Program-made: the position numbers and the translations under genes
Shown: positions 1 to 64,000 of the stretch, one piece after another
Position numbering within the stretch: position 1 is the first letter of the stretch
Layout: each line of letters begins with the position of its first letter
Notes under the pieces: generated by a model
Told to the model about the DNA's origin: nothing
The model's input: the letters and a program-made list of their open reading frames with translations, nothing else
Database searches by the model: none
From: a virus
Lineage: Duplodnaviria > Heunggongvirae > Uroviricota > Caudoviricetes > Demerecviridae
Virus record (IMG/VR): IMGVR_UViG_2974597248_000001
Span: 49,479-113,478 of that record
Length of the DNA stretch: 64,000 bases
Reading direction: 5' to 3' (one strand)

Positions 1-55
1 AACTCCCCAGTTTCTGGGGAGTAATCAAATAACTCTTTTAGCCTTTCCTGTGTTA

Positions 56-1531: not shown

Positions 1532-1559
1532 CCTTTGCACGCTTTCGTGCCTTCTAAAT

Positions 1560-1592
1560 GCAAAAAGGGGAAGGAGCATAGCCCCCTCCCCT
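1560..1592 (-). terminator. hairpin plus U-tract between the HTH-protein gene and the helicase-like gene (possible attenuator)
   Basis: On the minus strand: GGGGAGGGGGCTATGCTCCTTCCCC followed by TTTTTG. Confidence 0.45.
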
Positions 1593-1610
1593 TAGGTTTA
1601 ATTTACCAGA

Positions 1611-2378
1611 TTATTCAGCAGCCGCAGCTTTTGCATCCAGTTTAGCACGCTTAGCAGCACCATCATAGTCCTTAGCAACCAGACCACGACGAGACAGCAT
1701 AGATTTAACACCGCGCTCAGACTTACCAGTTTTCTCAGCGATCTCAGCAACAGTCATATTGACCAGATCCAGACCTTCTAACAGATCTTCACGAGTTTTA
1801 GCACTTGAGGTTTCCTGTACCGGCATAGCAGCGATACGACCTTCACGAAGCAGGCTCAGAGCTTTACCACGGATCTGCTTGATATTACGACCGAAGTGAG
1901 CAGCGATAGCTTCAATAGTAGCACCAGCAACAACCTGATTAACAAAATCAGTTTCTTCGTCCGGAGTGAAGGAACGAACAGCAGCAGCTTTTTCGGTTGG
2001 TTTAACAGAAGCGGTCATTTCCAGACTCAGAATCTTACCCTGTACCTGCTTAGCACCGAACTGACCACCAGCTACAGCAGCAGCGATTTCAGCATAGGTA
2101 TACTGACCAGCATGAGCGTTCAGGAAATCAACCAGTTCAGCTTCCTGCTCAGGAGTCCACGGGGATTTCTGTACTTCATTAGCTTTCTGTACTTCAAAAC
2201 CTTCTTTACGCAGTTTAGAGCCAACAGAGCGAGCAGTAACATCTTTGCCAGTTTCAGCGGCCAGTTCAGCAGCGATAGCAGCTACTTGTTCTTGAGAGAT
2301 TACAGAAACACCCAGAGCAGTGGCTTTTGCTTTCAGAGACTCGGTTACACCTTCTACGTTCCAGTTCAGTTTAGACAT
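1611..2378 (-). CDS. DNA-binding protein with three tandem HTH-like repeats (sigma region-4-like; T5 D5-like?)
   Basis: Three repeats of the form TxAEIAxxxGxxxxxIxGKxLSL are visible in the translation. Confidence 0.5.
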   Translation of the reverse strand: MSKLNWNVEGVTESLKAKATALGVSVISQEQVAAIAAELAAETGKDVTARSVGSKLRKEGFEVQKANEVQKSPWTPEQEAELVDFLNAHAGQYTYAEIAAAVAGGQFGAKQVQGKILSLEMTASVKPTEKAAAVRSFTPDEETDFVNQVVAGATIEAIAAHFGRNIKQIRGKALSLLREGRIAAMPVQETSSAKTREDLLEGLDLVNMTVAEIAEKTGKSERGVKSMLSRRGLVAKDYDGAAKRAKLDAKAAAAE

Positions 2379-3153
2379 TATTATTTTTCTCCAATAGTTC
2401 TTTAATCGACAGGATTTCTATCCCATTCGTTTCGGCTTTCTTATAAGATGAGGAAGAACGTTTTGATTCATCCTCACAGATCAGGTATTTGACGTCTTTG
2501 GTAACGGATTTCTTAACCGTATATCCTAGACCTTCTAAATAGTTTGTTGCATCCGTTCTATTTGCAAAATCTTGCAAAGATCCGGTAATACATACCGCGA
2601 TTCCATTTGGCTGGGCAACTAACTCATCTGTAATGATGATGTCAGCTTTCGCACCCTTAATACCAGCTGAGAATTTCCACGGTAGTTCGATAACATCCTT
2701 GCCTTGTGGGGAATTTAGCCAGGCTCTATAGTTTTCTCCAGCCTTGCCGTCAGCCTTCACATCGTGGAAGCTAGTGCAATTTTGGGATAATTTCTTTGCT
2801 GCAACCTCTCCAATTAGAGGGATTCCTAAAGAACCGAGAACTGAACCAAAGTCAATGTCTCCGCGAACTTTAGTATTTAATTCGCTAATTAACTTAGCGG
2901 CAACCTTGCTACCCACGGCTCTAACCAAATCTTCTTCGGTTAGGTAAAATAGTTCTGAAATCTTCGTCAGCTCCAGCTTCTCAATAGTTTTTGGACCAAA
3001 GCCCTTTAACTTCATTTTTGTACAGAAGTTCTCAATTAACTTACTTGATTGCGCTGGACAGTTGGACTTATTCCTACAGAATAATTGTCCGTTGACAAGA
3101 TCTAGCTTAGAACCACAAGAGGGACATTGTGTTGGAATTTCGATTTTCATCAA
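2371..3153 (-). CDS. NAD-dependent DNA ligase, C-terminal subunit (Cys4 Zn finger, HhH, BRCT)
   Basis: The translation has CPSCGS...CRNKSNCP (Zn finger), FGPKTIEKL (HhH) and a BRCT-like C-terminus. It is separated from the adenylation subunit by a 200-bp spacer containing a promoter. Confidence 0.75.
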   Translation of the reverse strand: MMKIEIPTQCPSCGSKLDLVNGQLFCRNKSNCPAQSSKLIENFCTKMKLKGFGPKTIEKLELTKISELFYLTEEDLVRAVGSKVAAKLISELNTKVRGDIDFGSVLGSLGIPLIGEVAAKKLSQNCTSFHDVKADGKAGENYRAWLNSPQGKDVIELPWKFSAGIKGAKADIIITDELVAQPNGIAVCITGSLQDFANRTDATNYLEGLGYTVKKSVTKDVKYLICEDESKRSSSSYKKAETNGIEILSIKELLEKNNNV

Positions 3154-3180
3154 ATTTCTTCCTTATCAATTTATATAAAT

Positions 3181-3209
3181 ATTATAGCAAGTATTTAAGC
3201 ATTTAGCAA
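3181..3209 (-). promoter_or_regulatory. T5-early-type sigma70 promoter between the two ligase halves
   Basis: The reverse complement reads TTGCTA-17-TATAAT, followed by ATTTATATAAATTGATAAGGAAG. Confidence 0.6.
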
Positions 3210-3352
3210 CTACAATTTTAACTAACTTTGCTTACCCTCGCCATAACTTTCTATCCCTCAACTGAATGATAATAGTATATACCTAAGCGGCGAAAATGTC
3301 AATAACCACTTTATAATTCCGATATGGTAGATGGGTAGCAAAGGGTTATGTA

Positions 3353-4324
3353 TTAATCATATACTCGCTCTACTATGCACGGGATTACACCACCCGCACG
3401 AATTACTCGAATCTGGCAACCGATCTCTAGATCGAGAGAGTTAATATAATCAACGTTATTAAGAGTTGCTTTAACAATTGTAGCATCATCAATAATTACC
3501 GGTTCGAAATAACCAACTGGGGTTACTTTACCAGAAGCCCCTACCTGCCATTCAACTTTAGTAAGAGTTGTAATCTCGCCTTCTTCATCTTCTTTAATAG
3601 CGAATGCGCCACGAGGAAATTTATTAGTCCAGCCTTCTCGGAAGAATTTGTTGTTGTCATTAATACGAACAACTTTACCATCCGTCGGAATCCATTTAAA
3701 GAAGGAGCGCACATTAACAACTGTTAAGAAATCTTCATTCTCTAGCCAAAGCATATCTTTTAAATACGATTCTGTAATACCTACAGATTCAGCAGAACAC
3801 TGGATACCATATGCAACGAAGATTAAACCGCCTTCTCCGATACGTTGTACGAAATCATCACTATCTTTGAGGTTAATAGCACCAGAGGCAAAGTTACGTT
3901 TATTTTCTACTTCTTTTGTAATTAGAACTTCACCAGTGATTTGGGTAGGTACTTTTTGGGAAATCTTTTTAGGGATGTTCAGCAATCTTACGTTGCTTGT
4001 GACATCATTCCCTAGAATACCATTACCACGAGTTAGTGCTTGAACAAATTCTCCATTAATATATAACAGAGAAATTGCACAACCATCTAACTTATCAGTT
4101 TCTACCTGTCCTAGTGGGTTAAACGGAGGTTTATCTCCACGATTATAATAAACTTTCTGTAAAGAATACATACGATACATATGTGGAATATCGCCTTTAG
4201 GCCCGATCTCTTCTTCTAACGGAAATCTTTTAATCAGACGATCATATTCTTCGTCAGAGATTAAAGACATGCCTTGATAATATGCTTCTTGACAGCGTTT
4301 AATAAATTCTTTTACATTAGTCAT
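3353..4324 (-). CDS. NAD-dependent DNA ligase, N-terminal subunit (adenylation domain with KLDG, plus OB fold)
   Basis: ETDKLDGCAISLLY is the LigA motif I with the active lysine. An OB-domain-like C-terminus follows, and the ORF stops before the Zn finger. Confidence 0.8.
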   Translation of the reverse strand: MTNVKEFIKRCQEAYYQGMSLISDEEYDRLIKRFPLEEEIGPKGDIPHMYRMYSLQKVYYNRGDKPPFNPLGQVETDKLDGCAISLLYINGEFVQALTRGNGILGNDVTSNVRLLNIPKKISQKVPTQITGEVLITKEVENKRNFASGAINLKDSDDFVQRIGEGGLIFVAYGIQCSAESVGITESYLKDMLWLENEDFLTVVNVRSFFKWIPTDGKVVRINDNNKFFREGWTNKFPRGAFAIKEDEEGEITTLTKVEWQVGASGKVTPVGYFEPVIIDDATIVKATLNNVDYINSLDLEIGCQIRVIRAGGVIPCIVERVYD

Positions 4325-4597
4325 TTATTCTACCTCATAGTACGTGGGCTGTCTAGTGAATCCGTGCCATGTAAAATTTTTGCAGAGATGCAAATACGTG
4401 GTTTTTACTAGCCTATCTGACAATGGAGAGTATATTTCAGCTGTTAATACTTCTTTTTCGTAATGAAGTGAAATCAGCTTATACCCACTTCTAATTTTAG
4501 TATACTTTTCTCCATTAATCTTCTCCTCCCACATAAGTATAAGAGGCTGTCCGATATATGGGAAAGGTTTAAGTGTACTTATATTTATCTTTTTCAC
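4325..4597 (-). CDS. hypothetical protein
   Basis: ORF directly abutting the ligase gene; a promoter lies upstream at 4628-4656. Confidence 0.5.
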   Translation of the reverse strand: MKKINISTLKPFPYIGQPLILMWEEKINGEKYTKIRSGYKLISLHYEKEVLTAEIYSPLSDRLVKTTYLHLCKNFTWHGFTRQPTYYEVE

Positions 4598-4662: not shown

Positions 4663-4974
4663 TTATTCTTTTTCCGCCAGGCGTTTAGCTTCTTTTTCTA
4701 CTTCTAATAAAACCTCACTATTAGATAATATTTTAGTAAATGCCTTAAATAAATGAGATGTTGTTTCTAGAGTGTATGGCATACTGAATCCACTTTTTGT
4801 TGGAAACCATTCACCTTCTATATCTTGGAGCCAGTACCTAATTCCTAAGTATAGATTCCCCCTAAACTCAGATACAGTTAGCCTAACCTGTTGGCCATCT
4901 TCTCTCTCCCAGATAACTATGGACTGATCATCTACATGTCCAACATAATCCTGATTTACATTATCTCCTGACAT
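4663..4974 (-). CDS. hypothetical protein
   Basis: ORF of 103 aa. Confidence 0.5.
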   Translation of the reverse strand: MSGDNVNQDYVGHVDDQSIVIWEREDGQQVRLTVSEFRGNLYLGIRYWLQDIEGEWFPTKSGFSMPYTLETTSHLFKAFTKILSNSEVLLEVEKEAKRLAEKE

Positions 4975-5621
4975 TTTATTGCTCCCTGACTTAGGAGATA
5001 TTCCTCTGCCTCCTCTGGTTGAATACTGAAAAACTCAGTAGAACCGTCAAATATTGACTCTGTAAATATCTGCATACTAGAAAAGAATTGATGGGCTTTA
5101 TTTTCTAGGGTATATGCAGAGCCTTCATAAGAGTATACCCCATGTATACTCAGATCCACCAAATTAGAATCTTTTTTGATCTCTTGAAGTCTTCTATCTG
5201 GGTTTTTAGATGTTCCTATTTTTGTTCCTAGCTGCGGGCTATAAAATAGATACAAATAGCTTGTAGCCGCACAGATAGGGCAAGATCTTCTAGCATTTTT
5301 AATCTTATCCACGCTGCTAGCCCATCTATGTCCTTCTACACACTCGAACTCTGCTTGACTACGGGAATTAATATAGGGAGATACAAGTTTTATGCCCATA
5401 CTAGCTAGCTGTTGGTTTATTTGCTCTACAGTAAGCTTAGCTTTATTACTACAATGTGGGCAACCACTACCCTTTCTTATATTATTTAGGTAAGCTTTCC
5501 ATTGGTGGCCCTTTAAGCATTTAAACATGGCTGGTGTTCTTATGTTAACCCATTCACTTACTATACTAAAGCCTCGTGACTCTAACTCTTTATTTATTTG
5601 TTTTGCTGTTAACTTTTTCAC
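4956..5621 (-). CDS. T5orf172-domain (GIY-YIG-like) protein with two Zn-ribbon repeats
   Basis: Two CxxGHxW...GCPxC repeats, followed by YLYLFYS...IGTSKNPDRRLQEI, which matches the T5orf172/GIY-YIG-like pattern. Confidence 0.7.
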   Translation of the reverse strand: MKKLTAKQINKELESRGFSIVSEWVNIRTPAMFKCLKGHQWKAYLNNIRKGSGCPHCSNKAKLTVEQINQQLASMGIKLVSPYINSRSQAEFECVEGHRWASSVDKIKNARRSCPICAATSYLYLFYSPQLGTKIGTSKNPDRRLQEIKKDSNLVDLSIHGVYSYEGSAYTLENKAHQFFSSMQIFTESIFDGSTEFFSIQPEEAEEYLLSQGAIKCQEIM

Positions 5622-5640
5622 TATACTTTATATACAACAA

Positions 5641-5664
5641 AGGAGAGCCGAAGCTCTCCTTTTC
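5641..5664. terminator. palindromic hairpin, possibly a bidirectional terminator
   Basis: AGGAGAGC-CGAA-GCTCTCCT flanked by T-runs. Confidence 0.4.
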
Positions 5665-5668
5665 TTTA

Positions 5669-5959
5669 TTATTTTTTACCTACTGGCGTAGCTCTATCAA
5701 GTTCACTAGACAATGAAGTGATACGTTTTACCTTATTTACCGGGATGAATCGGAAGCTATCATTAGTACGGCTAAATACTAGAATCTCGTCGTCTTTTGG
5801 TTGGCGAATACGCTCCTGGGCGAATCGTTTACTGAGATACTTATCAGAAAAGTCCATAGTACCTTGAAGATACGTAGTACCTTTTTGACGTAATTTCTCA
5901 TAATGAAGGTAGAACTCGTTATGAGCTTCACATGCGGAGATGATTTCTTGTTTATTCAT
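5669..5959 (-). CDS. hypothetical protein
   Basis: ORF of 96 aa. Confidence 0.5.
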   Translation of the reverse strand: MNKQEIISACEAHNEFYLHYEKLRQKGTTYLQGTMDFSDKYLSKRFAQERIRQPKDDEILVFSRTNDSFRFIPVNKVKRITSLSSELDRATPVGKK

Positions 5960-5974
5960 GCAAAAATCCCCTTA

Positions 5975-6385
5975 TTACTTAGTGATAGCTCGGATTGCTT
6001 CTGCCAGATGAGCGGCTGCTTTACCGGTCAGTTTGTCGATAATTGCATCATCCAGAAAATCTGGTGCTAAGCCAGCATCAGAGAATGCTGAACGAAGGTC
6101 GGCATGAGCTTGGGCTTTGGAGGTACGAGAACCACCGGAAGCTTTTTCTCCAGTAGATGCGCTAGATTTAGAAGCGGAGCCAGCAGCTTTCTTGATATAC
6201 AAACCTGCTTTAGTTAGCTTCATACGAAAACCGTTCGGAGTTACACCATTTTCCTGGGCAATTTCGCTAACAATTTCCATGCTAACACCAGGACGTTCAT
6301 CCTCTGGGAATTGCTCCATACGAGCAACGTATTCGGAAGACATTTTTTCGAACAGTTCATCAGTCCACTGAGTTGGAGTAGTCAT
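5975..6385 (-). CDS. hypothetical protein
   Basis: ORF of 136 aa; promoter upstream at 6443-6471. Confidence 0.55.
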   Translation of the reverse strand: MTTPTQWTDELFEKMSSEYVARMEQFPEDERPGVSMEIVSEIAQENGVTPNGFRMKLTKAGLYIKKAAGSASKSSASTGEKASGGSRTSKAQAHADLRSAFSDAGLAPDFLDDAIIDKLTGKAAAHLAEAIRAITK

Positions 6386-6442
6386 ATTTTATATTTCCTT
6401 AATTAAGAATTAAACAGAATAGTTCTTTCAAACTATGAGAAT

Positions 6443-6471
6443 ATTATATCAAGAATTATAGGATTAAGCAA
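6443..6471 (-). promoter_or_regulatory. T5-early-type sigma70 promoter
   Basis: The reverse complement reads TTGCTT-17-TATAAT. Confidence 0.55.
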
Positions 6472-6491
6472 CTGAAATTTTTCAGTAATTG

Positions 6492-6746
6492 CTACACATC
6501 TAGCTCAACGATCTCCCAATCATCCGCCAGAGCTTCTTCTAGGGTAAGGTTTACTTGACGGATAAGTGGGGATTCCATACCGTTCTCCCACACATGTTCG
6601 GTCACTGTACCCTGCTCTACGTTAAATTCTAAAACTACTGTAAAGTATTTATTATTTTCCCAACTATCCCGCTGGAGATATTTTACATCTCCATCTTTAA
6701 GCAAATCTGTTAGCTTACTCACGGCGTTTTCCTTTTTCTTTATCAA
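6492..6746 (-). CDS. hypothetical protein
   Basis: ORF of 84 aa. Confidence 0.45.
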   Translation of the reverse strand: MIKKKENAVSKLTDLLKDGDVKYLQRDSWENNKYFTVVLEFNVEQGTVTEHVWENGMESPLIRQVNLTLEEALADDWEIVELDV

Positions 6747-7419
6747 GTTTCAGGGCAGCCTTAACAGCTTCGTTAATCAACGTAATAATTTCTTCACGAG
6801 TCCATTTATACCCCAGAGATTTTACGTCAACCCCTAACTTTTCCAGATGTTTAACAGAAGCCAGCTCGTAATTCATATAATGGACGTTCTGTTGTTTGCC
6901 TTCTGATAGAAGCCATACACGGTAGCAACCAACAGGATTATCCATTGCTTTTTTGATTTCACCGATACACTGGTATCCAGGAACCCAAACAAGCTCACCA
7001 ACTGCAAATTCTTCTGCTACAGCATCATCAGGAATAATCGGAGGGTTCAATGGGTCTACAATATCATTCAAACGAAGCAGCGCACCATAGCGGTCCAAAA
7101 CAGATTTAACCATTGCTACAGAACGATAATTACGATCGGCAATTTCTTCAAAAGAATCACCAGATAAATACTGCTCAATAACGTTAGCTAACTCAATACC
7201 TTCAATGAGTGTGCCACGTTTCTTTTTCTTCATTTCGGCAACTTGAATCTGGCGGTCTTGCCATTCTTCAATCATCCTTTCCATAGTTGGATTGGATGAT
7301 ACTCCGAGCATTTCACATGCTGCTTTCTTAGTCCCACCGTTCTCCAGATGCTCTATAACCTTTTTAAAGACTTCATCCGGGATTTCATGGATATGTTTCT
7401 TTCTACGAGAACCAGCCAT
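6715..7419 (-). CDS. putative HTH DNA-binding regulator
   Basis: The N-terminus has an HTH-like segment (GGTKKAACEMLGVSSNPTMERMIEEW). A promoter lies upstream at 7451-7479. Confidence 0.5.
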   Translation of the reverse strand: MAGSRRKKHIHEIPDEVFKKVIEHLENGGTKKAACEMLGVSSNPTMERMIEEWQDRQIQVAEMKKKKRGTLIEGIELANVIEQYLSGDSFEEIADRNYRSVAMVKSVLDRYGALLRLNDIVDPLNPPIIPDDAVAEEFAVGELVWVPGYQCIGEIKKAMDNPVGCYRVWLLSEGKQQNVHYMNYELASVKHLEKLGVDVKSLGYKWTREEIITLINEAVKAALKLDKEKGKRRE

Positions 7420-7450
7420 ATTTAAACTCCTCTCTCAAATTTATGAATCT

Positions 7451-7479
7451 ATTATACAGAAATTTTTTGCACTATGCAA
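7451..7479 (-). promoter_or_regulatory. T5-early-type sigma70 promoter
   Basis: The reverse complement reads TTGCAT-17-TATAAT, followed by AGATTCATAAATTTGAGAG. Confidence 0.55.
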
Positions 7480-7487
7480 ATAAATTT

Positions 7488-7730
7488 TTATGATTCCTTG
7501 AGCAAAGAAGCAAGTTCAGCATAGACTTTATTTAACTCAAAGCCGATGCGAAGAGACACGTTGGTTTTCCGTTGTTTAAGTAACCACTCGGATATGTTAG
7601 GGATGCCAGCTAATCTATGCGGTACCACCCTACATAGCTTTTCCGAAGTGTCGTAAACAGGAACTTTACGTTCTTTTACCGGAAACTTCCTTGTTTCCCA
7701 TTTTTTATTCTTAACTGTCATTTCTAGCAC
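7488..7730 (-). CDS. hypothetical protein
   Basis: ORF of 80 aa. Confidence 0.4.
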   Translation of the reverse strand: MLEMTVKNKKWETRKFPVKERKVPVYDTSEKLCRVVPHRLAGIPNISEWLLKQRKTNVSLRIGFELNKVYAELASLLKES

Positions 7731-10494
7731 CTAGCTCTGCCATTGCTTCATCATGCATATGTTTCTCCTCGTCAGTCATAAACTTATACGGGATTGGCAT
7801 ACACTCGATTTTACAGTAGGTTCTGTACCAGTCTACAATATTCTCCGTGTTCATATCCTTGCCAATACCCATCATACCAAGATACATTCTAGCATATTTT
7901 GGGTTAGCACTCTGACCTGTTTTAAGAAAGAAATCTTTCTTCTTACCTTTCAGAGCTTCTATGAATGGTTTGATAGTGACATTTGAACACTTCTTAATAT
8001 CTTCCCAGAACATTTCGTGCATCTTATGGAAGAATGCAGCCCGATCATTAGGTTTATCCTTGATATATTGTTCAACATGCTCAACTGTTACATCTTTAAT
8101 AGACTCAAGATGGTAATAGCGAACAAGAAGTAGTTTAGCTTCATACGCATCTGCATGGCGTGGAGCACAGTAATCAGGAGTTGAATACAAAATGGCTTTG
8201 ATTCGCTCTTCCGTGTACTCTTTTCCTGCACCTTCGATAGTTCCCCAGCTTTCACTGAAAATATCAATAGTTGCACCCTGATCAAGCAAGTAATAACGTA
8301 AAGTACTAGTATAGTTCCTAGATTCCAGCTCCCTACGACGCGCGTATAATTGCTGTGCTAACTCCAGCCAACCTTCATCAATGTTATATTGTTCAGAGCC
8401 TGCGGAGAATCCACTCGTAGATTTATCAATAAAATAATAAATGTTCTGAGCACCACGGTCGCGCCTGATTGCTTGGAAACGCATGTTCGGCGCTTGGTTA
8501 CTAGTTCTAGTAATAACAAATACGTTATCAAAGTAGTTGAAGTCAACGCCACTTGTTACGGATGGACTACATAATAAGCAATCAATTTGTTGGTCAATTA
8601 GCTCATTAGTTGTGTAATCCAGAATACGTCGAATATCTACATCAGACGTAGAGTTTGAGTGGATTTCCTTAACTAGCGCACCCGTATTACGACGCAACGC
8701 CATGCCCTTCTCATTCAGTTCATCCGGCCCACAGTCAGATACTAGGATAGATTTTTCACCCATCTCTAGAGAAGTCTGAAGTGCAACCCAAATACTGGAT
8801 TCATCAGGAAACTCATAAGCATGAGCTTTTGACAGCATCTTACGGTGGTGGTTATAAAATGCCACTGGTTTATCAAAATCAATTAGAGAACCGTAAGCTT
8901 CAATCGTCTCAGCACTAATATCACCATCTGATAGAATTACAGTTTTAGCTGTCATGAGGATGTCACGTAGAACTTGAATACATTCGCGACGTTGTTTAAC
9001 AACTGGGGCGAATAATAGATCATTCATTACAGCGTCACATTCATCAATAAAGATGGTGTCTATTTGACCAATAAAACTTTTGAACTTATGCAAAGAGTGA
9101 ATAGTTGTGGACATACGATCAATAGCTCCACGTTTAAAGTTGAGCATATCTACGGACTTATCATATTGTCCTGCGCTAAATTTCTTAGCGTTTGAAGATA
9201 CCAGTGCTCTAGTATTTGTAACCGCTAAAAAGTTGCCAGGAAGAACACCTGCGTCCAGCCATTTAGTTACTGCCGTAGTTTTACCCGTACCAAGACTTGC
9301 CTTAACAAATGTTATGTGGCCTTTTGGGGGTACAATGTTAATCTTCAGGTATGGAACTTCTGGTGGAGAATCCACTTCTAATTTCTTGAGTGGAACACCT
9401 TTCAGATTTAATGGAATCTCACGTTTAGAATTATTAACAAACGCTTTGAGAGCCTGCTTACGACCGTTATTAAAGTAATCTTGAATATTACGACTGTTAT
9501 CTTTAGTTGCAATATATTCAGATAAAGCGGGTTTAATCTCACGTTCTAGCCATGCGAAATCAACACCATCCTCTAATGCTCTATGGTATAGTTTGGGGAT
9601 AATACGCAAGTACACTCCATCCTCAGCTTCTTCCAATTCGCTGATGGTTTCTTCTACTTTATCAGAAGCAATCTTTTTGCCTTTAATTTGGTCAAGTAAA
9701 GAATAAAACTCTTCCTTAAACTCCCCTCTAGTTGTTTCATAGTCAACCAGATTATTAGGCAAATTTACCTTCGAACCTTTAACATACACCAGACGTGGCT
9801 TACTCTCCGCTTTAAACGGATCTACAATACCATCGCTAAATAAAGGGTCGGCAAAATAGTGAAGCTGGACAGATGAATAATAAGCTAAGTCGGCAATATC
9901 AAAACCGAATTTTTGCTTACTACTATCATTGATAGACGTAAATAAGAACTTTAACTGACCTTGAGTTACCTTGACGTTAGATTCTAGCATTAAGTGCATT
10001 CGGATACCTGGTTTTAGGCCAGCCGAAGACGATGCATGAGCAATAAACCCTGCATCAAGAGGAAACATGTCCTCACTAATACTATTCAACATCTTAATAA
10101 TGTGGCGGGCCATGCCTACAAGATTAAACTTGTCGTACCCACCGGTATCTAGGATACCATCCACGTCCATAGCAATAATATTACTAGGGTTAGACACATT
10201 AAAGTTACCTTTCTTACGTCGCACATTATTTTTAGGTGCAAGACATCGACCTCGTACCGCAACGATATGAGGGTCAGACGTTAAACGTCTCATAAGTGGT
10301 AACATTTCGGCAAGGCTTTGCGGGTCATGCTCTTCTATTACATCAAATTTGAAGGGCATAGAAGCTGGTTTACCTTCTGGATGCTCTTTCGAGAATCGCT
10401 TGGCAAAGGTATAATCTTCCACTTTGATTTCTCGCCAAATACCTGTTGCTAAATCACGAGAAAATCCAGCGTGACCTCGAAGAATAGAAAACAC
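7711..10494 (-). CDS. large P-loop NTPase, possibly a primase-helicase or origin-binding protein
   Basis: 927 aa. A Walker A motif (VKASLGTGKTT) lies mid-protein and the N-terminus has an acidic DVDG motif. No secure family assignment. Confidence 0.5.
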   Translation of the reverse strand: MFSILRGHAGFSRDLATGIWREIKVEDYTFAKRFSKEHPEGKPASMPFKFDVIEEHDPQSLAEMLPLMRRLTSDPHIVAVRGRCLAPKNNVRRKKGNFNVSNPSNIIAMDVDGILDTGGYDKFNLVGMARHIIKMLNSISEDMFPLDAGFIAHASSSAGLKPGIRMHLMLESNVKVTQGQLKFLFTSINDSSKQKFGFDIADLAYYSSVQLHYFADPLFSDGIVDPFKAESKPRLVYVKGSKVNLPNNLVDYETTRGEFKEEFYSLLDQIKGKKIASDKVEETISELEEAEDGVYLRIIPKLYHRALEDGVDFAWLEREIKPALSEYIATKDNSRNIQDYFNNGRKQALKAFVNNSKREIPLNLKGVPLKKLEVDSPPEVPYLKINIVPPKGHITFVKASLGTGKTTAVTKWLDAGVLPGNFLAVTNTRALVSSNAKKFSAGQYDKSVDMLNFKRGAIDRMSTTIHSLHKFKSFIGQIDTIFIDECDAVMNDLLFAPVVKQRRECIQVLRDILMTAKTVILSDGDISAETIEAYGSLIDFDKPVAFYNHHRKMLSKAHAYEFPDESSIWVALQTSLEMGEKSILVSDCGPDELNEKGMALRRNTGALVKEIHSNSTSDVDIRRILDYTTNELIDQQIDCLLCSPSVTSGVDFNYFDNVFVITRTSNQAPNMRFQAIRRDRGAQNIYYFIDKSTSGFSAGSEQYNIDEGWLELAQQLYARRRELESRNYTSTLRYYLLDQGATIDIFSESWGTIEGAGKEYTEERIKAILYSTPDYCAPRHADAYEAKLLLVRYYHLESIKDVTVEHVEQYIKDKPNDRAAFFHKMHEMFWEDIKKCSNVTIKPFIEALKGKKKDFFLKTGQSANPKYARMYLGMMGIGKDMNTENIVDWYRTYCKIECMPIPYKFMTDEEKHMHDEAMAELGARNDS

Positions 10495-10991
10495 AACAAT
10501 ACTCCTGTGTTGGTTAATCGAAATCTTTTCTTTAGGACTATTCAGAAAGAATAGAACAACTATTACTACTATTTACGTAAACATCAATTATCATCAAGCA
10601 ATATGAATAAGTTATCATATCTCAGTGCTGTGCTCTCTTCGCTCATATACAGAATAGAACCTAGGTCATTGGCCGCTAAGCCGATTCTATTTGTCCTCAC
10701 TATCCTATTGGTAGGTGACTACTGTACGTGCCGCCATTCGCTGCTCTTTTCGTTCGCACCCCCATATAAAGCTCTGCCTATATAACGAGCTAAATATGCA
10801 CGGTTTGGATTTACCTTTCCGAATTCAGGGTACACAGATCACTTAATTGAAGATTAACTAATGCAATATAAACACTAGTAATAGTTAAAACAACCCTTAA
10901 TGGGGCAGCCTAACTGTTCCGTATCGCGGATTGTAAACAAGAAAAATTAGCAAAATCAATTTTTACTAATGTCTCTCAATTCAATATAAAT

Positions 10992-58794: not shown

Positions 58795-59000
58795 AATCTC
58801 ATAGATTAAAAACATCAACTTGTTTTTACCTCTAGGCCGTAGATTTACATCATTCCTCGTAGGAAAACACTTGATGACGGTTCTGCTCGCAGGTTCTCGT
58901 CAATTGTTCTTCCACACCGAGACTTAGGAGGATGTATCAAATCGCACGCGCCTAGAGGGGCTAACTCTCATGAAATGGGGGTATATTTATTTTTAAATAA
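58795..59000 (+). ncRNA. candidate non-coding transcript from an ORF-less consensus promoter
   Basis: TTGACA-18-TATAAT at 58765-58794. The longest downstream ORF is 17 codons. Confidence 0.3.
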
Positions 59001-59147
59001 CTAAAAAATATTTAAAGGCAATATCTGTGTTCAAGATGATACACCTGTTGCCGCTCATCTGCTAGGATGGCACAACACTTTCTTCTAGACTCCTAAGTTT
59101 CTAGGAATAGTTGAGCACAAACTCTAGCGTTTATACTAAACTTTAAA

Positions 59148-59882
59148 TCGGATTTGCACATGTTCTAGGGCAGTTTCTCTTAACGCTACATATCCTAGGC
59201 CGGTTTTCCTATACAGGGCGGTTATAGGGAGGGCGGTTATTTCTAGACAACATTTTTTGAAAACACATTTTCAGAAATTACTGTCGGATTTGCACATTGT
59301 GTTTCTAGAAATTTATGGTCGGATTTGCACAATTGCCTAAGTTTTTAGGAACATATAATCTCCTGAAAATGGCAGCATTATTTCGGGCCGAAGGCCCATG
59401 ATTGCCTGAGTTTTTAGAGCCACAGAAATTTTCACTTGTCAAGCTATTTTGCCCCATTTTGCTAATAAAATTTTACTTTATCTCCACTAATCTCAAATTA
59501 ACCCAAATCTTCTCAACTCTTCCCCAAAATCCCCGCAAATCAGGTGGCCCGCACCAAACATGCGCCCCTCTAGCTTCTCCCCTAATTTTCTCTCGCTCTC
59601 TCATCTTCTCCACAAACCCGCACAATCACACACCCTCCAATCGAAGTCACAAAAATCTTGTCGGATTCGCACAAATAAACTCATGTCGGATTTGCACATA
59701 TTCTAGCTAATTCCACAGGATTGATGCGCAGCATCGGATTGCTGGAGTTTCTAGAAAAATTCATTGTCGGATTTGCACACTATAAAAATTTTTCGGGTCG
59801 GATTTGCACACTACCAAAAATTGTCGGATTCGCACATACACGCCCGCACGTAACACCCGTGGAGCAATGTCGGATTTGCACA
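59148..59882 (+). repeat. array of nine dispersed direct copies of a 14-mer iteron, GTCGGATT(T/C)GCACA
   Basis: Copies start at 59148, 59274, 59308, 59660, 59685, 59766, 59797, 59823 and 59869, all in the same orientation. Confidence 0.85.
59480..59660 (+). repeat. strand-asymmetric, nearly G-free C/A/T-rich low-complexity tract
   Basis: About 180 nt of the form CCCCAAAATCCCCGCAAATC...CACAAACCCGCACAATCACACACCCTCCAATCG on the plus strand. Confidence 0.6.
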
Positions 59883-59884
59883 AA

Positions 59885-59906
59885 AGCGCAGGGCAATTGC
59901 CCTGCG
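59885..59906. repeat. 22-bp perfect palindrome GCGCAGGGCAATTGCCCTGCGC
   Basis: Read directly from the sequence. Confidence 0.9.
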
Positions 59907-59910
59907 CTAA

Positions 59911-60120
59911 ATACGAATGATAATAAGAATCATTCTCATTTAAAAAGCGGAATGAGAATGATAATAATTCTCATTTAAAAAGCGGAATGATAATCATTAT
60001 CATTTAAAAAGCGGGATGAGAATCATTTAAAAAGTGGAACGATTCTCATTTAAAAAGCGGAATAATTCTCATTTAAAAAGCGGAATGCGAATGATAATGA
60101 TTCGCATTTAAGAATGGAAG
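59911..60120. repeat. degenerate tandem array (7 units of 23-35 bp) of a palindromic A+T-rich unit TCATTTAAAAAGCGGAATGAgAATgATaAT
   Basis: Unit starts at 59936, 59971, 60000, 60023, 60046, 60069 and 60104. Confidence 0.85.
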
Positions 60121-60141
60121 TGAGAAACACTGTTATTTAAG

Positions 60142-60161
60142 TTATCCCCAGACTTATCAAC
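60142..60161 (+). promoter_or_regulatory. two DnaA-box-like 9-mers (TTATCCCCA, TTATCAACA; each 8/9) outside the left inverted repeat
   Basis: The CAGACTTATC context recurs at 60149 and 60210. Confidence 0.4.
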
Positions 60162-60209
60162 AGCACGATTTGACTTGACAAAATTCTAGCCATTTTGAGG
60201 CGTTATTAA

Positions 60210-60249
60210 CAGACTTATCCACAGCTTATCCTACTGTATAAATATACAG
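60210..60249. repeat. left 40-bp perfect inverted repeat (contains the DnaA box TTATCCACA at 60215-60223)
   Basis: CAGACTTATCCACAGCTTATCCTACTGTATAAATATACAG is the exact reverse complement of 62425-62464. Confidence 0.9.
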
Positions 60250-60507
60250 TATTCCTACGCAGTGAATAATTCTAATATACCGCTAAAACGCCCTCAAACG
60301 CATTCTAACGCGTTTAATTTTGTTGGGGATACTAAAACAAGGGCAAAATTGGAGGAGGCTTGAAAATTAGTTAGCGAGCTAACGATCACATAAGGCGACA
60401 CGTAACACCCTAACCATTAGCAGGCTAACCATCGCGGGCGCGGTCAAATGAGAATCACTCTCATTTGAGAATTGGGGGCACTCCCGGATAGTTGCGCCCC
60501 GTGATTA

Positions 60508-60702
60508 TTAGTCAGGTAGTTGATGCGTGATCTTTTCCTCCTCCCCGTAGGAATCCACCAAATACTGATAATAACCATCGTGATCATAGATCACTTTATC
60601 ATATTCCCCACGCTCAACCGCTTGTCGGTTTTCTGGCGTATCAGGCACGTAAAAAACATCAACCATTGTACTGATTTTGGTTACAACAATTTTATTGCTC
60701 AT
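60508..60702 (-). CDS. hypothetical protein (inside the IR-bounded segment)
   Basis: 64 aa. Confidence 0.35.
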   Translation of the reverse strand: MSNKIVVTKISTMVDVFYVPDTPENRQAVERGEYDKVIYDHDGYYQYLVDSYGEEEKITHQLPD

Positions 60703-60975
60703 AATAACGCCCTAGTAAATATATTTTTGCCAATAGTGGCGAACGTTATCGCCACCAGCGGAATCATTAGCGGCCTTACTATTACCGACGAAAGTATATA
60801 ATCTCATTAGTATTATTTTCCTTGCATTAATTTATATATAACGAACATTCCGCAAAACTGCCCTAATATAGTGCAGACAACAAGGGATAACACAATATTG
60901 CCGATCATGTTATAAGTAACCATACCAATAATAAGGGATAGCGCATACCCTAGCAAAGCAATATAAACAGCCATA

Positions 60976-61326
60976 TTATTTACCTATTTTTCGAAACGCT
61001 GTTTCAATACTATCAGCCGTGGATTGAATATATGCGCCTTTCATTATCAGGCGCTCGGTGCATACTTTGCGGAAAATATTAATAAAATCATCTTCACTTT
61101 CTGCAATTAATGCCTCACCCATTACCTGAACGTCGCAAGATGCAAAGGTTAAAAATTGAAACGCTAGTTCACGGGCAACGACCGCATTGATTTTATAATG
61201 CGCCTTGCCCTCATAAATATTAATAACGCCCTTATAAGCTGGCGAAAGCTGGTTTAAATAGTTTGCTAACAATGCCGGGCGGCAGTTAGCAACAAAACGA
61301 TTGCCCTCGTAAATGATCATTTGCAT
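60976..61326 (-). CDS. hypothetical protein (inside the IR-bounded segment)
   Basis: 116 aa. Confidence 0.45.
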   Translation of the reverse strand: MQMIIYEGNRFVANCRPALLANYLNQLSPAYKGVINIYEGKAHYKINAVVARELAFQFLTFASCDVQVMGEALIAESEDDFINIFRKVCTERLIMKGAYIQSTADSIETAFRKIGK

Positions 61327-61444
61327 AACCTCCCGATCAGATAGCCTGATAAAAGCATAAAGATCCCCAACGAAATGGGATCATTTTTAAATAAGGTGGC
61401 AATAAAACCGCCAGCTATTGCAAGGAGAATAACAATAACGCTTT

Positions 61445-61657
61445 TCATAGTACCCCACGAAACGCAGCGTAAAAGGTGGCAAAGTGCCTAACCGTTTCAG
61501 TGATCACGTTGCCGCGCTTATCGAATTTCTTTTCAGTAACACGAAAGGCATTTTTATTACGTGCTACATATTCGATTTTACAATCTGGACGCTCGAACGT
61601 GTTAGCATCCACCAGCTTAAAGCCTTTCGAACGTGCAAGAGAAACGTTGCGGATCAT
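61445..61657 (-). CDS. hypothetical protein (inside the IR-bounded segment)
   Basis: 70 aa. Confidence 0.4.
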   Translation of the reverse strand: MIRNVSLARSKGFKLVDANTFERPDCKIEYVARNKNAFRVTEKKFDKRGNVITETVRHFATFYAAFRGVL

Positions 61658-61660
61658 TTT

Positions 61661-61843
61661 TTATTCTCCTTTACCAGTCATGCAGCCCAGCAGATAAGAA
61701 AATACAGCAATGCCAGCGCCAATAGTAACCATTGGTTTAGTATTTACTAAACCGCAATAGGAATCCTGAATACCATAAGCGGTGGCGAAAAGAGTCAAAA
61801 TAGCGCCCAAGATACCCGCTAAAAAAGCTCGAAAAATAATCAT
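61661..61843 (-). CDS. small membrane protein (inside the IR-bounded segment)
   Basis: 60 aa, hydrophobic. Confidence 0.35.
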   Translation of the reverse strand: MIIFRAFLAGILGAILTLFATAYGIQDSYCGLVNTKPMVTIGAGIAVFSYLLGCMTGKGE

Positions 61844-61892
61844 TTGTGATACTCCCCTAGTTAGTGGGGCGATACTTTCGCCCCGTTATTGA

Positions 61893-62201
61893 TTACATTA
61901 AAATAATTTTGGCCGCTTGTTTTTTGGTACAGTGTTCCGTCTTCAGGGTATCCAGCAAAAAGCCCGCCGTTTGCTGATCGATTTGATCATTATCATAAAG
62001 CGCTTGGATGGTGGTGTAAGTTTTAGCAATGCCGTATTCTTGGACCATTTCCTGAATAATCCAGCGATTTGATACCCAGCCTTTTCCAGTGAAAAGAGCG
62101 TCAGAAGAAGAAAAAGCAACCATTTTAAGCCTCCAAAATTTTGGGAAAATTTTCAATCCACCGTTCTGGTGTAAAAGCATTATAACAAAAAAGGCCACCA
62201 T
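61893..62201 (-). CDS. hypothetical protein (inside the IR-bounded segment)
   Basis: 102 aa. Confidence 0.4.
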   Translation of the reverse strand: MVAFFVIMLLHQNGGLKIFPKFWRLKMVAFSSSDALFTGKGWVSNRWIIQEMVQEYGIAKTYTTIQALYDNDQIDQQTAGFLLDTLKTEHCTKKQAAKIILM

Positions 62202-62424
62202 AAAAGGCGACCTTTACAAAACTTTACAATAGGCTAGTTATTACTCGTTTTCGGTGTTAACGGTAAAAGTAGAAATATCGATACCTTTTACCATTTCCAG
62301 CATTGCCGCCGCCTGGCCGCCGTGTCACGGCTTTACTTTAATATTACCCCGCAGCGTTTAGCTCGTTAGAAAGCGTTTTAGGCCGCATAAAATTGATTGC
62401 AGTCGTTAACACTACCTTTTTACC

Positions 62425-62464
62425 CTGTATATTTATACAGTAGGATAAGCTGTGGATAAGTCTG
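62425..62464. repeat. right 40-bp perfect inverted repeat (DnaA box TGTGGATAA at 62451-62459)
   Basis: Exact reverse complement of 60210-60249. Confidence 0.9.
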
Positions 62465-62523
62465 TGCAAAAGTCCCCATATCGCCGCCTATCGTGTCAAA
62501 TTATTTTACAAAATGTATAAGTC

Positions 62524-62532
62524 TGTGGATAA
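62524..62532 (-). promoter_or_regulatory. additional consensus DnaA box (TGTGGATAA) outside the right inverted repeat
   Basis: 9/9 match to TTATCCACA on the minus strand, in a second ATAAGTCTGTG context. Confidence 0.5.
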
Positions 62533-62723
62533 CTTAAATGATAGTGATTCTCACTAATTAATTTATGTAGTTATTATATCGTAAAATATAGTTAGTTGCC
62601 TAATAGGTTTTTAGAGTGATTATGAGTCAGCTAATTAAACCTGAAAAACTCATTAGCTAGTCTGCTAATCATTTTGATATAATATAATAGAGATTAAAGT
62701 AATAACATAAGGAAACTATAACA

Positions 62724-63245
62724 ATGGGTAAATATAAAGAAATTAATTATAATGATATAAAAGATCACGTATATTATGATGAATCGTCGCCATCATTTCT
62801 ACGATGGAAAGTAACGCGGGATAATATTTCAGCAGGTGATATTGCCGGTTGTATTAATTCCAGTGGTTATTATATCGTAACTATTAATAACGTTAGTTAC
62901 CGAGTACATCGTATCATATGGGTATTATTTCATAAAGAAATAGATAGCAATCTAACAATCGATCATATTGATCGTAACCGCGCTAATAATAACATTAAAA
63001 ACTTACGCCTTGTTACTCATTCGCAGAATTGTAGTAACAAGGGTGATAGTTTGCGTGCTAATGGTTTACCTAGAAATATTTCATATCATTCTAATAATCG
63101 TGTTGATAGTAACGGGCGTAAATATATGACGGCTATGTTTCGAGTGCCTAATAGTAACAAGCGTGTTAGTAAGTCTGGTTATGATTTACAAGAGTTATTA
63201 TTATGGCTTGAAACTAAAAAAGCTGAATTTGGAATTGTCAATTAA
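62724..63245 (+). CDS. HNH homing endonuclease
   Basis: IDHIDRNRANNNIKNLRLVTHSQN HNH motif plus an AP2-like region; an A+T-rich promoter-like sequence lies upstream. Confidence 0.65.
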   Translation: MGKYKEINYNDIKDHVYYDESSPSFLRWKVTRDNISAGDIAGCINSSGYYIVTINNVSYRVHRIIWVLFHKEIDSNLTIDHIDRNRANNNIKNLRLVTHSQNCSNKGDSLRANGLPRNISYHSNNRVDSNGRKYMTAMFRVPNSNKRVSKSGYDLQELLLWLETKKAEFGIVN

Positions 63246-63758
63246 TTAATTTAATAAATTAAGTCATTTGATCTTGATTTTTAAAAGTCAAGACCTTTTC
63301 TAACTTTATTTCAATTTTGCTTTTGTTAAATATTTGTTAAGTCCAATTTAAGGCATCTAGAACGCATTCTAAGCGCCTTAAAAACTAACCTAAGCAAGTG
63401 CATCGCTTATACGCCTTTATCGCCATCAGGAGGATTCTAGATTTTGTCAATACCCCCAAAGCAAATAAAAATGAAAAATTTACTTGCCTATCTGCTATGT
63501 TTTGTGGTATTCGCGCGCCCGTTTCTTTTAATTTTAATGCGCCGCGCCCAGGTCGCCGCATGGTGTCCGGTGGCGTTTGTCTTTACATTTCTTTACAAAA
63601 ATAAGGTTGCGCCTTTTTCGTTGTTTGTTATTATTTATCTCGTAGGGCGGCAATGACGAACTACACGGCGGGAAGTTTACCGCCGCGCTCTTTAAAAATT
63701 GGGTATATCTTAAAGCCTATCGGCGGTAAACTTATCTATTATATAAGGAATCGACGAT

Positions 63759-63962
63759 ATGAAACAAACTTTATTGATCACTGGTAAACCTAGCAAGGCA
63801 CTGGATAGCAAAACAAAAAATTTATTGACAGTAGCGCAAAGATCGGTAAAATATCGATTTGAGCAGTACAAGAAAGGCCGCCAGCAAGGACTAGAAATGA
63901 TCTGGCGAAATATTATGATTGACCTGAAGGAAAATCATAAAAAACTGCAAAAAATAGTTTGA
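63759..63962 (+). CDS. hypothetical protein
   Basis: 67 aa. Confidence 0.35.
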   Translation: MKQTLLITGKPSKALDSKTKNLLTVAQRSVKYRFEQYKKGRQQGLEMIWRNIMIDLKENHKKLQKIV

Positions 63963-64000
63963 CAACCTAGCCGATAGGCTTTAAGATGTACCCAGTTCGA

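Follow-up and report, generated by a model that had tools for sequence, protein, structure and literature searches.

For over 50 years, the question of how T5 injection comes to pause has stayed open. A DnaA box in the iss region of T5 was reportedly first noted in 1987, and the names IRC and IRD of the T5 inverted repeats are said to come from Wang et al. 2005. The original prediction for the locus studied here stated that a DnaA-box-containing injection-stop region had been described for T5, and exactly this architecture is found in the literature: the pair IRD'-spacer-IRC' and IRC-spacer-IRD has been described for T5 and 25 relatives, with its boxes arranged in pairs 3 bp apart (Davison 2020, bioRxiv 10.1101/866236). 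The role of these modules in the pause is still called proposed by papers from 2023 and 2026.

Other described elements share single traits with this pair. The E. coli SOS boxes are 20-bp palindromes with the consensus TACTG(TA)5CAGTA. The uvrB promoter region of E. coli joins LexA operators and DnaA boxes in a short regulatory region (PMC6015884); it belongs to a repair gene of the chromosome, and an effect on its transcription has been demonstrated. Transposon terminal inverted repeats and the Gin/Hin segments have inverted repeats flanking a few kilobases.

The stretch analyzed here (the window, 64,000 nucleotides) belongs to Salmonella phage SP01, a Tequintavirus, and matches NC_047859 at 100%. 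The inverted repeats of SP01 are the published T5-family IRC/IRD pair, and the finding is therefore already known, because the published pair matches in its 131-bp length, 52-bp spacer, eight paired boxes and divergent opposite-strand region. As submitted, the prediction is a rediscovery of a published T5-like feature and adds little by itself. SP01 resembles T5 in the terminal-repeat position, the bipartite arms with their spacers, the four DnaA-box pairs 3 bp apart and the variable opposite-strand operon between the arms. It differs in the complementarity of the inner 40-bp arms (100%, versus 88% in T5 and 85 to 97.5% in other relatives), in having all eight DnaA boxes whereas T5 has seven (T5 count from Davison's review), and in lacking gene 011 and the gene 011 promoter. 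Like the SOS boxes, the SP01 candidate sites are 20-bp palindromes close to the consensus; unlike them, they show no evident placement over a mapped promoter, are carried by a virulent phage, are paired with DnaA boxes and come in two inverted copies. Unlike uvrB, SP01 presents a fixed predicted module made of a DnaA pair, 8 bp and a LexA-type box. The likeness to transposon and Gin/Hin ends stops at inverted repeats a few kilobases apart, since SP01 shows no recombinase, target-site duplication, or orientation or occupancy polymorphism, and its arms are internally structured arrays of predicted protein-binding sites.

Results

The inverted repeats lie in the first-step-transfer DNA

The 8,948-bp terminal repeat of SP01, which is its first-step-transfer DNA, encloses the inverted-repeat region. 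Past position 64000 this repeat carries homologues of T5.007, A2, A1 and dmp (record annotation), and within this Demerecviridae terminal repeat the inverted-repeat region has the A1/A2 operon to one side of it and the repeat-rich injection-stop region to the other. The features on the latter side are as follows.

59148-59889, plus strand: DRD-type direct repeats, nine copies with the core TCGGATT(T/C)GCACA, straddling the terminal-repeat boundary
59417-64000, no strand: in-window part of the terminal repeat, identical to NC_047859 1-4584 (0 mismatches)
59932-60131, plus strand: iteron array, seven ATTCTCATTTAAAAAGCGGAATG-like copies at 23-35 bp spacing

The DRD-type stretch is homologous to T5 9317-10608 and the iteron array to T5 9520-9704; Davison's review describes Repeat Region 3 of T5 and places the T5 shear point at about 9618. 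By homology, the iteron array marks the presumed place of the T5 injection pause. Its comparison with known RNA families returned only PrrF and rliI, both below the gathering score and considered chance matches. The expectation of a T5-like genome held, the flanks being collinear with T5, and so did the placement of the module beside the iteron array at the edge of the terminal repeat: comparison with the other terminal-repeat copy sets the start of the repeat at 59417, and the arrays adjoin.

Recomputation confirmed 60210-60249 as the exact reverse complement of 62425-62464. Perfect complementarity in fact covers 41 bp, extending one base further outward (60209-60249 and 62425-62465), and simple arithmetic gives about 1e-15 such pairs expected by chance in 64 kb. 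The predicted extension of the symmetry to about 100 bp has to be revised, as each module measures 131 bp (39 + 52-bp spacer + 40).

60119-60249, plus strand: pause-proximal module, T5 IRD'-spacer-IRC' (IRD' 60119-60157, spacer 60158-60209, IRC' 60210-60249)
62425-62555, minus strand: distal module, T5 IRC-spacer-IRD (IRC 62425-62464, spacer, IRD 62517-62555)

IRC' of the pause-proximal module and IRC of the distal module are the left and right 40-mers of the prediction. The outer arm pair (60119-60157 and 62517-62555) is 90% complementary and is divided from the perfect inner arms by 52-bp spacers, at 60158-60209 and approximately 62465-62516, that are only about 58% alike between modules. 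Aligned to T5, the arms fall on IRC/IRD and nowhere else. With T5 9411-9541 the pause-proximal module shares 92.4% identity, and with the orthologous modules of 26 other phages 88 to 99%; the equivalent of the distal module, which is placed between two divergent pre-early transcription units, is T5 6098-6228, T5 having both arm pairs. An assembly artefact was rejected: the other terminal repeat holds an identical copy (0 mismatches over 4,584 bp), and both modules are found in every related genome examined.

Four pairs of DnaA boxes

The claim that each 40-mer carries a consensus DnaA box was correct, TTATCCACA being found at 60215-60223 and, on the other strand, at 62451-62459. There are four TTATCCACA-type 9-mers in the window, three within the modules and the fourth at 51995. 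A second CAGACTTATC(C/A)ACAGC copy had been claimed on both sides; the left one is good (60149-60164), while the right one is partial only (CAGACTTATACATTTT, minus strand). Together, the modules contain eight DnaA or DnaA-like boxes in four pairs with a 3-bp gap, four of them matching TTWTNCACA exactly, three with one mismatch and one with two.

60142-60162, plus strand: DnaA-box pair 1, TTATCCCCA, GAC, TTATCAACA, one mismatch each to TTWTNCACA
60203-60223, plus strand: DnaA-box pair 2, TTATTAACA (one mismatch), GAC, TTATCCACA (consensus)
62451-62471, minus strand: DnaA-box pair 3, TTTTGCACA and TTATCCACA, both consensus, 3 bp apart
62512-62532, minus strand: DnaA-box pair 4, TTATCCACA (consensus) and TTATACATT (two mismatches), 3 bp apart

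A LexA-type operator at the inner end of each arm

Each arm ends on its inner side in a 20-bp palindrome with intact CTGT and ACAG half-sites.

60232-60251, no strand: LexA-type operator 1, TACTGTATAAATATACAGTA, 19/20 to TACTG(TA)5CAGTA, 28.4 bits, 8 bp past the inner DnaA-box pair
62423-62442, no strand: LexA-type operator 2, CCCTGTATATTTATACAGTA, 17/20 to TACTG(TA)5CAGTA, 24.1 bits

The LexA matrix and hence the scores are approximate, the two consensus counts being independent of it; on this approximate scale, operator 1 scores above every operator used in the matrix, and both sites score at least as high as the chromosomal operators in it. The E. coli operators nearest to the SP01 sites in sequence are presumably those of dinD, umuDC and sulA. 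Sites above the median operator score occur only twice in the window, at the two arm ends, and six other pre-early regions have exactly two such sites each, where shuffled sequences give at most 0.025. Operator 1 is kept at no less than 25.6 bits in all 27 distinct phages, and the operator 2 site at 19.6 bits or more in 24 of the 27. In Proteus and Vibrio phages, whose A1 is 31 to 42% identical, a LexA-type box again lies 6-9 bp from DnaA boxes; in Vibrio phage Noelle, no LexA-type site was found in the divergent region.

The LexA boxes do not overlap experimentally mapped T5 promoters. Only weak promoter-like matches overlap them, and these are unconserved in distant relatives; the promoter scan found 18 matches versus 13.4 +/- 3.8 in shuffled sequence, which is no excess. 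As far as the literature was checked, a LexA-type operator at the arm ends is apparently new: the searchable literature reports no LexA on these sites, though Wang 2005, the 1987 iss paper and Davison 2015 could mention the palindrome.

A covariation test between host and motif, using the alphaproteobacterial LexA motif GTTC-N7-GTTC in Rhizobium and Dinoroseobacter phages with A1 homologues, was dropped. In those phages, A1 lies in replication or structural modules without a first-step-transfer-like region, which makes the test meaningless. [quoted passage not shown]

A fixed orientation and a variable gene content

We checked 35 IMG/VR loci and T5. Both modules are present at the same locus in 27/27 distinct relatives, with one module orientation throughout and with no change in the order or strand of the inner genes; the gene content between the arms varies, and the arm-to-arm distance ranges from 1,590 to 4,060 bp. 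Pairwise identity among pause-proximal modules is 0.96 for IRD, 0.92 for the spacer and 0.92 for IRC. The pause-proximal module is present in all relatives examined, the most distant included, and some relatives are without the distal module altogether (Davison's review). Gene conversion or concerted evolution between the arms was rejected, same-genome arm identity (0.887) being the same as that between genomes (permutation p = 0.40). Since arms are no more alike within a genome than between genomes, their likeness reflects selection on shared motifs rather than homogenization, and would mean that the same protein-binding motifs are kept at both places.

The enclosed DNA had been described as five small minus-strand ORFs with no recognizable function. 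It contains at least eight, matching T5 pre-early families, and one of them is homologous to T5.015, a characterized T5 protein.

60508-62123, minus strand: variable pre-early operon, eight small ORFs, transcribed towards the injection-pause region
62180-62215, minus strand: terminator-like hairpin (62215-62190), then directly the extended -10 TGTTATAAT (62188-62180)
62297-62308, no strand: deletion junction relative to T5, about T5 6345-7449 missing from SP01 (BLAST map)
62724-63245, plus strand: hegG-like HNH homing endonuclease directly outside the distal module (Pfam HNH_3, E = 1.9e-15)

The operon ORFs encode 76, 60, 70 (T5.014-like), 43, 116 (T5.015-like), 53, 31 and 64 (T5.017-like) amino acids, their T5 homologues being assigned by tblastn. 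All but the 53-aa ORF, thus seven of eight, have a match among the PHROG families of T5-like phages, and no Pfam domain was found in any of the eight. The -10 element TGTTATAAT is likely an internal operon promoter, judging from its sequence. The T5 segment missing from SP01 holds a characterized promoter and most of gene 011 (T5 annotation). The HNH endonuclease is 65% identical to T5 hegG.

A published T5 deletion, 'hegG to 017', is viable and forms smaller plaques. From the position of the junction primers, at about 5393 and 9161 in T5, approximately 5394-9160 is deleted; this removes the distal module (6098-6228) with all the enclosed genes and keeps the proximal one (9411-9541). The viability of this phage shows that, in T5, the repeat pair is not essential, and neither is a complex that needs both arms. 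The dispensability of the distal arm and the enclosed genes directs attention to the pause-proximal arm.

Discussion

The explanation that we consider probable as a whole is that the SP01 repeats, as the known T5-family pair, provide docking platforms for host proteins. The pair brackets the variable half of the pre-early region in the first DNA to enter the cell, and each 131-bp arm would be a fixed platform for host DNA-binding proteins, made of two DnaA-box pairs and a LexA-type operator of top strength 8 bp past the inner pair. The pause-proximal arm (60119-60249) would be the core part, as the last conserved element to enter before the stop in the adjoining iterons, and the distal arm (62425-62555), between the divergent units, would be accessory. 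We infer that DnaA and LexA may actually bind the modules, and that the resulting protein-DNA complex may help to hold the DNA at the pause and/or insulate pre-early transcription from it.

Only the geometry, a perfect inverted repeat around a variable set of small genes (2.2 kb) next to a homing endonuclease gene, speaks for the transposon-like or invertible module put forward in the original prediction. The suggested search for relatives in which the segment is absent or inverted was run, and neither state was found among the 35 IMG/VR loci and T5: with the two arms sharing a single locus and orientation across all relatives, no empty site, no match to a transposase, integrase or invertase in PHROG or Pfam family searches, no target-site duplication on direct reading (the outer flanks ...AATGGA and AATTAATTTA... 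are unrelated) and no sign of arm exchange, a mobile cassette or site-specifically invertible segment is effectively refuted. A replication origin had also been put forward, and the clustered DnaA boxes beside a seven-copy array of AT-rich iterons do resemble iteron-type plasmid origins. However, Davison's review puts the T5 origins around mid-genome, with the replication genes silent during first-step transfer, and no initiator gene was found nearby, making this reading very improbable. It is also distinctly unlikely that a phage protein, such as the dimeric A2, has its binding site in the CTGT-N8-ACAG palindrome and that the palindrome only mimics a LexA operator. A2 binds DNA as a dimer and is needed for second-step transfer, and across the family the conservation of the palindrome equals that of A1 and A2, but the match spans all 20 positions of the LexA consensus, flanking TA included, beyond the palindromic core. 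Moreover, the exact 20-mer is found in more than 119 viral contigs of mixed kinds, many of them 30-50 kb long and hence not T5-like, a spread that is compatible with a generic LexA operator and silent on function here.

Davison's full model proposes that membrane-bound DnaA captures the boxes of both modules, that the resulting 'knot' stops injection and that a cut by A1/A2 frees the DNA. The eight precisely arranged boxes kept across the family and the position of the pause-proximal module 150-290 bp inside the T5 shear point speak in its favor, and a second hold, at the distal module, would agree with an old report of another first-step band of about 5.8 kb. Nevertheless, T5 stays viable when that module is deleted, some relatives do not have it, and the conserved LexA-type box is left unaccounted for; we regard the full model as unlikely. 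Transcription control is a possible but doubtful alternative. In this case, DnaA and LexA at the distal arm would modulate the divergent pre-early promoters, and at the proximal arm they would form a roadblock keeping RNA polymerase from the operon off DNA still threaded through the tail. The distal arm does lie between the two divergent promoters annotated in T5, transcription of the operon runs towards the proximal arm, T5-type distal arms have a TATACA -35-like hexamer inside the LexA-type box followed by TATAAT, and E. coli uvrB offers a precedent for joint control by DnaA and LexA (PMC6015884). On the other hand, in T5 about 200 bp separate the LexA-type boxes from the mapped promoter of gene 011, SP01 keeps the module though that promoter is lost, and the promoter-like matches are weak and no commoner than in shuffled sequence.

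Within the docking-platform reading, we tentatively propose that LexA, and not DnaA alone, is a built-in part of the complex on T5-family first-step-transfer DNA. As part of the same tentative proposal, the LexA-DnaA composite may be older than the sequence homology of the arms. In its boldest version, the rapid degradation of host DNA driven by A1 would trigger RecA-mediated cleavage of LexA, which would release or remodel the complex on the first-step DNA. If true, successful host takeover would be coupled to the ending of the pause in injection, or to the programme of pre-early transcription. The presence of a near-perfect LexA-type operator beside DnaA boxes across the family opens simple genetic tests. 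The LexA-type and DnaA composite occurs in Tequintavirus, Epseptimavirus, Sugarlandvirus, Myunavirus, Novosibvirus and the Vibrio Demerecviridae, with the arm end 6-9 bp from the DnaA pair.

Inverted-repeat modules of SP01 and T5

The inverted repeat observed in SP01 is correct, and the structure is already in the literature. Indeed, the inner arms (60210-60249 and 62425-62464), which the original prediction described as exact reverse complements of 40 bp, were confirmed on recomputation, with a perfect match of 41 bp. A second arm pair (60119-60157 / 62517-62555) is 90% complementary, and 52-bp spacers set the arm pairs apart on each side. The result is a pause-proximal module (60119-60249, IRD'-spacer-IRC') and a distal module (62425-62555, IRC-spacer-IRD), each of 131 bp and carrying four DnaA-type boxes as two pairs, with a 3-bp gap within the pair.

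DnaA-box pairs in the two modules
From 60142: TTATCCCCA, GAC, TTATCAACA; pause-proximal module
From 60203: TTATTAACA, GAC, TTATCCACA; pause-proximal module
From 62451: TGTGGATAA, GTC, TGTGCAAAA; distal module
From 62512: AATGTATAA, GTC, TGTGGATAA; distal module

The 64-kb window has four perfect TTATCCACA sites, three of them within the modules. The two sides also share short similarities 35-90 bp inward of each arm, where AAACGC motifs are repeated (60283-60315, 62350-62381) and an 18-nt inverted pair (60283-60300 / 62364-62381) is 83% complementary.

For T5, Davison (bioRxiv 10.1101/866236) described two 131-bp elements in inverted orientation, IRC-spacer-IRD (6022-6152) and IRD'-spacer-IRC' (9332-9462). 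[quoted passage not shown]" This arrangement was found in almost all of 25 T5-like phages, around a highly divergent coding region transcribed from the opposite strand; Davison credited Wang et al. (2005) with the IRC/IRD names and a 1987 paper with the first DnaA box. In T5 AY543070, the same two arm pairs (6098-6136 / 9503-9541 and 6188-6228 / 9411-9451) adjoin the annotated injection stop signal (9140-10149). The SP01 pause-proximal module is 92% identical to T5 9411-9541, and the module flanks are collinear with T5. The finding is therefore already known, and the SP01 repeats are almost certainly the published T5-family structure. The lead toward a T5-like injection-stop region containing DnaA boxes was thus right, in agreement with both Davison's architecture and the AY543070 arm pairs. 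The role of the repeats and DnaA boxes was still only proposed in papers of 2023 and 2026. What we add are negative mobility tests, a mapped viable deletion lacking one arm, and a conserved LexA-type operator, a predicted site that offers a new and easily testable handle on the long-standing injection-pause problem.

By megablast, window positions 59000-63300 match Salmonella phage SP01 (KY114934 / NC_047859, genus Tequintavirus, 117,842 bp) at 100%, with hundreds of further matches at 85-95% to T5-like phages. Record position equals window position plus 49,478, and the SP01 record is oriented in reverse of T5; past the right end of the window, the + strand carries the T5.007, A2, A1, and dmp homologues. 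Window positions 59417-64000 are identical to record positions 1-4584 (0 mismatches over 4,584 bp). The SP01 terminal repeat thus measures 8,948 bp and takes in the whole feature. An assembly artifact as the origin of the inverted repeat is excluded. In T5, the first-entering terminal repeat is the one with the dmp gene at the physical end; by homology, the copy in the window is the first-step-transfer DNA.

Conservation of both arms and dispensability of the distal arm in T5

We obtained 27 distinct arm pairs from T5, the window, and 35 IMG/VR loci surrounding the T5.007 homologue. Both modules are present in every locus that extends this far; the pause-proximal copy is on the + strand and the distal copy on the - strand throughout, and the order and strand of the inner genes are invariant. 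The arms lie 1,590 to 4,060 bp apart, a spread that stems from gene gains and losses. PHROG and Pfam searches gave no match to transposase or invertase families, and the outer flanks of the SP01 segment have no target-site duplication. The suggestion of a transposon-like or invertible module therefore did not hold.

Mean identity of module parts among pause-proximal arms, among distal arms, between the two arms within a genome, and between the two arms across genomes
IRD (39 bp): 0.96, 0.92, 0.86, 0.85
Spacer (52 bp): 0.92, 0.78, 0.59, 0.58
IRC (40 bp): 0.92, 0.94, 0.92, 0.92

For IRD and IRC combined, inter-arm identity within a genome (0.887) is not above that between different genomes (permutation p = 0.40), so the arms show no sign of gene conversion. 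Selection on common motifs probably maintains their likeness. The 40/40 inner-arm match of SP01 is the top of a range of 0.85-1.0 among phages and does not set SP01 apart.

Annor et al. (bioRxiv 10.64898/2026.04.02.716235) removed the stretch "from hegG to 017" in T5; the mutant is viable, with smaller plaques. The published junction primers anneal at T5 ~5361-5393 and ~9161-9186; the deletion therefore spans ~5394-9160, taking in the distal module (6098-6228) and every enclosed T5 gene and keeping the pause-proximal module (9411-9541) intact. Accordingly, the inverted-repeat pair as such is not essential. Relatives without the distal arm were reported by Davison. The core element is the pause-proximal arm.

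Predicted LexA-type operators

On its inner side, each perfect arm ends in a palindrome, CTGTATA-AA/TT-TATACAG. The gammaproteobacterial SOS-box consensus is TACTG(TA)5CAGTA.

LexA-type sites at the arm ends
60232-60251: TACTGTATAAATATACAGTA; 19 of 20 consensus positions
62423-62442: CCCTGTATATTTATACAGTA; 17 of 20 consensus positions

Scores come from a position weight matrix of 27 E. coli operators, with sequences following the published compilations, and are approximate. On this approximate scale, the sites reach 28.4 and 24.1 bits, the only two above the median operator score in the 64-kb window; the best operator among the matrix inputs has 26.6 bits. Exactly two such sites are present in each of the pre-early regions of T5, My1 (Pectobacterium), Shiner (Klebsiella), and GreteKellenberger (Epseptimavirus), and likewise in those of Proteus phage 2 and Vibrio phage 70E34-1a; the figure after shuffling is at most 0.025 per pre-early region. 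With the same approximate matrix, all 27 pause-proximal modules score at least 25.6 bits, and 24 of 27 distal modules score at least 19.6 bits. In the Proteus and Vibrio phages, distant Demerecviridae in which A1 is just 31-42% identical and the arms can no longer be aligned, the opposite-strand operon still has at its far end a LexA-type box and DnaA boxes, 6-9 bp apart. The pairing of DnaA and LexA boxes is therefore conserved deeper than the repeat sequence. "LexA" and "SOS" do not occur in Davison's text, and no link between LexA and T5 turned up in a full-text literature search, with older subscription papers outside its reach.

The central dinucleotide of the palindrome (60241-60242 / 62432-62433) switches between AA and TT among phages (8 of 27 pause-proximal and 2 of 27 distal arms), never to TA or AT. 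These flips look like small inversions of the hairpin center and hint that the palindrome may be extruded or subject to template switching. More than 119 viral contigs (IMG/VR) contain TACTGTATAWWTATACAGTA as an exact 20-mer, many of them 30-50 kb and clearly not T5-like, a spread to be expected if many phages share it as a generic LexA operator of high affinity. Resembling the short stretches that lie 35-90 bp inward of the SP01 arms, "AAACGCTCT / GCGTTCTAG" strings recur beside the LexA-type boxes in My1, Shiner, and the Vibrio phages.

Transcription units and proposed role

The minus-strand pre-early operon between the arms (60508-62123) had been credited with five small ORFs, an undercount: we found at least eight. 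Seven of eight match PHROG families of T5-like pre-early proteins; a 53-aa ORF gave no PHROG match. The distal module sits between two divergent pre-early transcription units, with annotated T5 promoters on either side (5938-6012, - strand; 6411-6489, + strand). SP01 lacks T5 6345-7449 (~1.1 kb; deletion junction 62297-62308), which holds most of gene 011, a toxic gene, and its experimentally characterized pre-early promoter; what is left between the distal arm and a terminator-like hairpin (62215-62190) is no more than a remnant. The remaining operon begins after this hairpin, directly followed by a TGTTATAAT extended -10 element that, as read from the sequence, may serve as a promoter. Transcription runs toward the pause-proximal module. 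Beyond it come seven iteron copies in an array (59932-60131), then a GC-rich palindrome and a set of nine TCGGATTTGCACA repeats spanning the terminal-repeat boundary, in agreement with Davison's T5 Repeat Region 3.

On balance, we favor a mechanism in which each module would be a platform for the host proteins DnaA and LexA, the pause-proximal copy adding to a complex at the point where first-step transfer gives way to the second step. Such a complex might insulate and regulate pre-early transcription, a minority possibility that recalls the position of the distal module between divergent units. Somewhat less probable is Davison's idea in its full two-arm form, in which the complex holds the DNA at the pause; the T5 deletion, viable with one module, speaks against a need for both arms. 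It is rather unlikely that a phage protein such as A2 uses the palindrome in place of LexA, given the close match to the SOS box. A replication origin, which DnaA boxes and iterons could evoke, is improbable, and a mobile or invertible element, an idea prompted by the inverted arms, is effectively excluded.

Neighboring repeats and genes

The nine T5-type direct repeats (DRD, 59148-59889) share the core TCGGATT(T/C)GCACA, all in the same direction. Seven of the nine contain ATTTGCACA, one mismatch from the DnaA-box consensus TTWTNCACA, and two contain ATTCGCACA variants, with two mismatches; the usual count of eight may thus fall well short of the weak DnaA sites in the pause region. Between these repeats and the iterons, a 22-bp GC-rich perfect palindrome, GCGCAGGGCAATTGCCCTGCGC (59886-59907), maps approximately to the major single-strand interruption of T5 (AY543070 9748/9749).

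A 70-aa ORF (61445-61657) is labeled "endonuclease nicking abasic sites generated by Ung" in RefSeq and PHROG 4227. By gene order and published cloning primers, it is the T5.014 homologue, and the characterized T5.015 corresponds to the adjacent 116-aa ORF (60976-61326); the label may be off by one gene.

[quoted passage not shown] To the right of this gene, a 28-nt inverted repeat (63697-63724 / 63970-63997, 93% complementary) corresponds to T5 4680-4707 / 4951-4978, within T5 Repeat Region 1 (4682-5310), which contains IRA/IRA' according to Davison.
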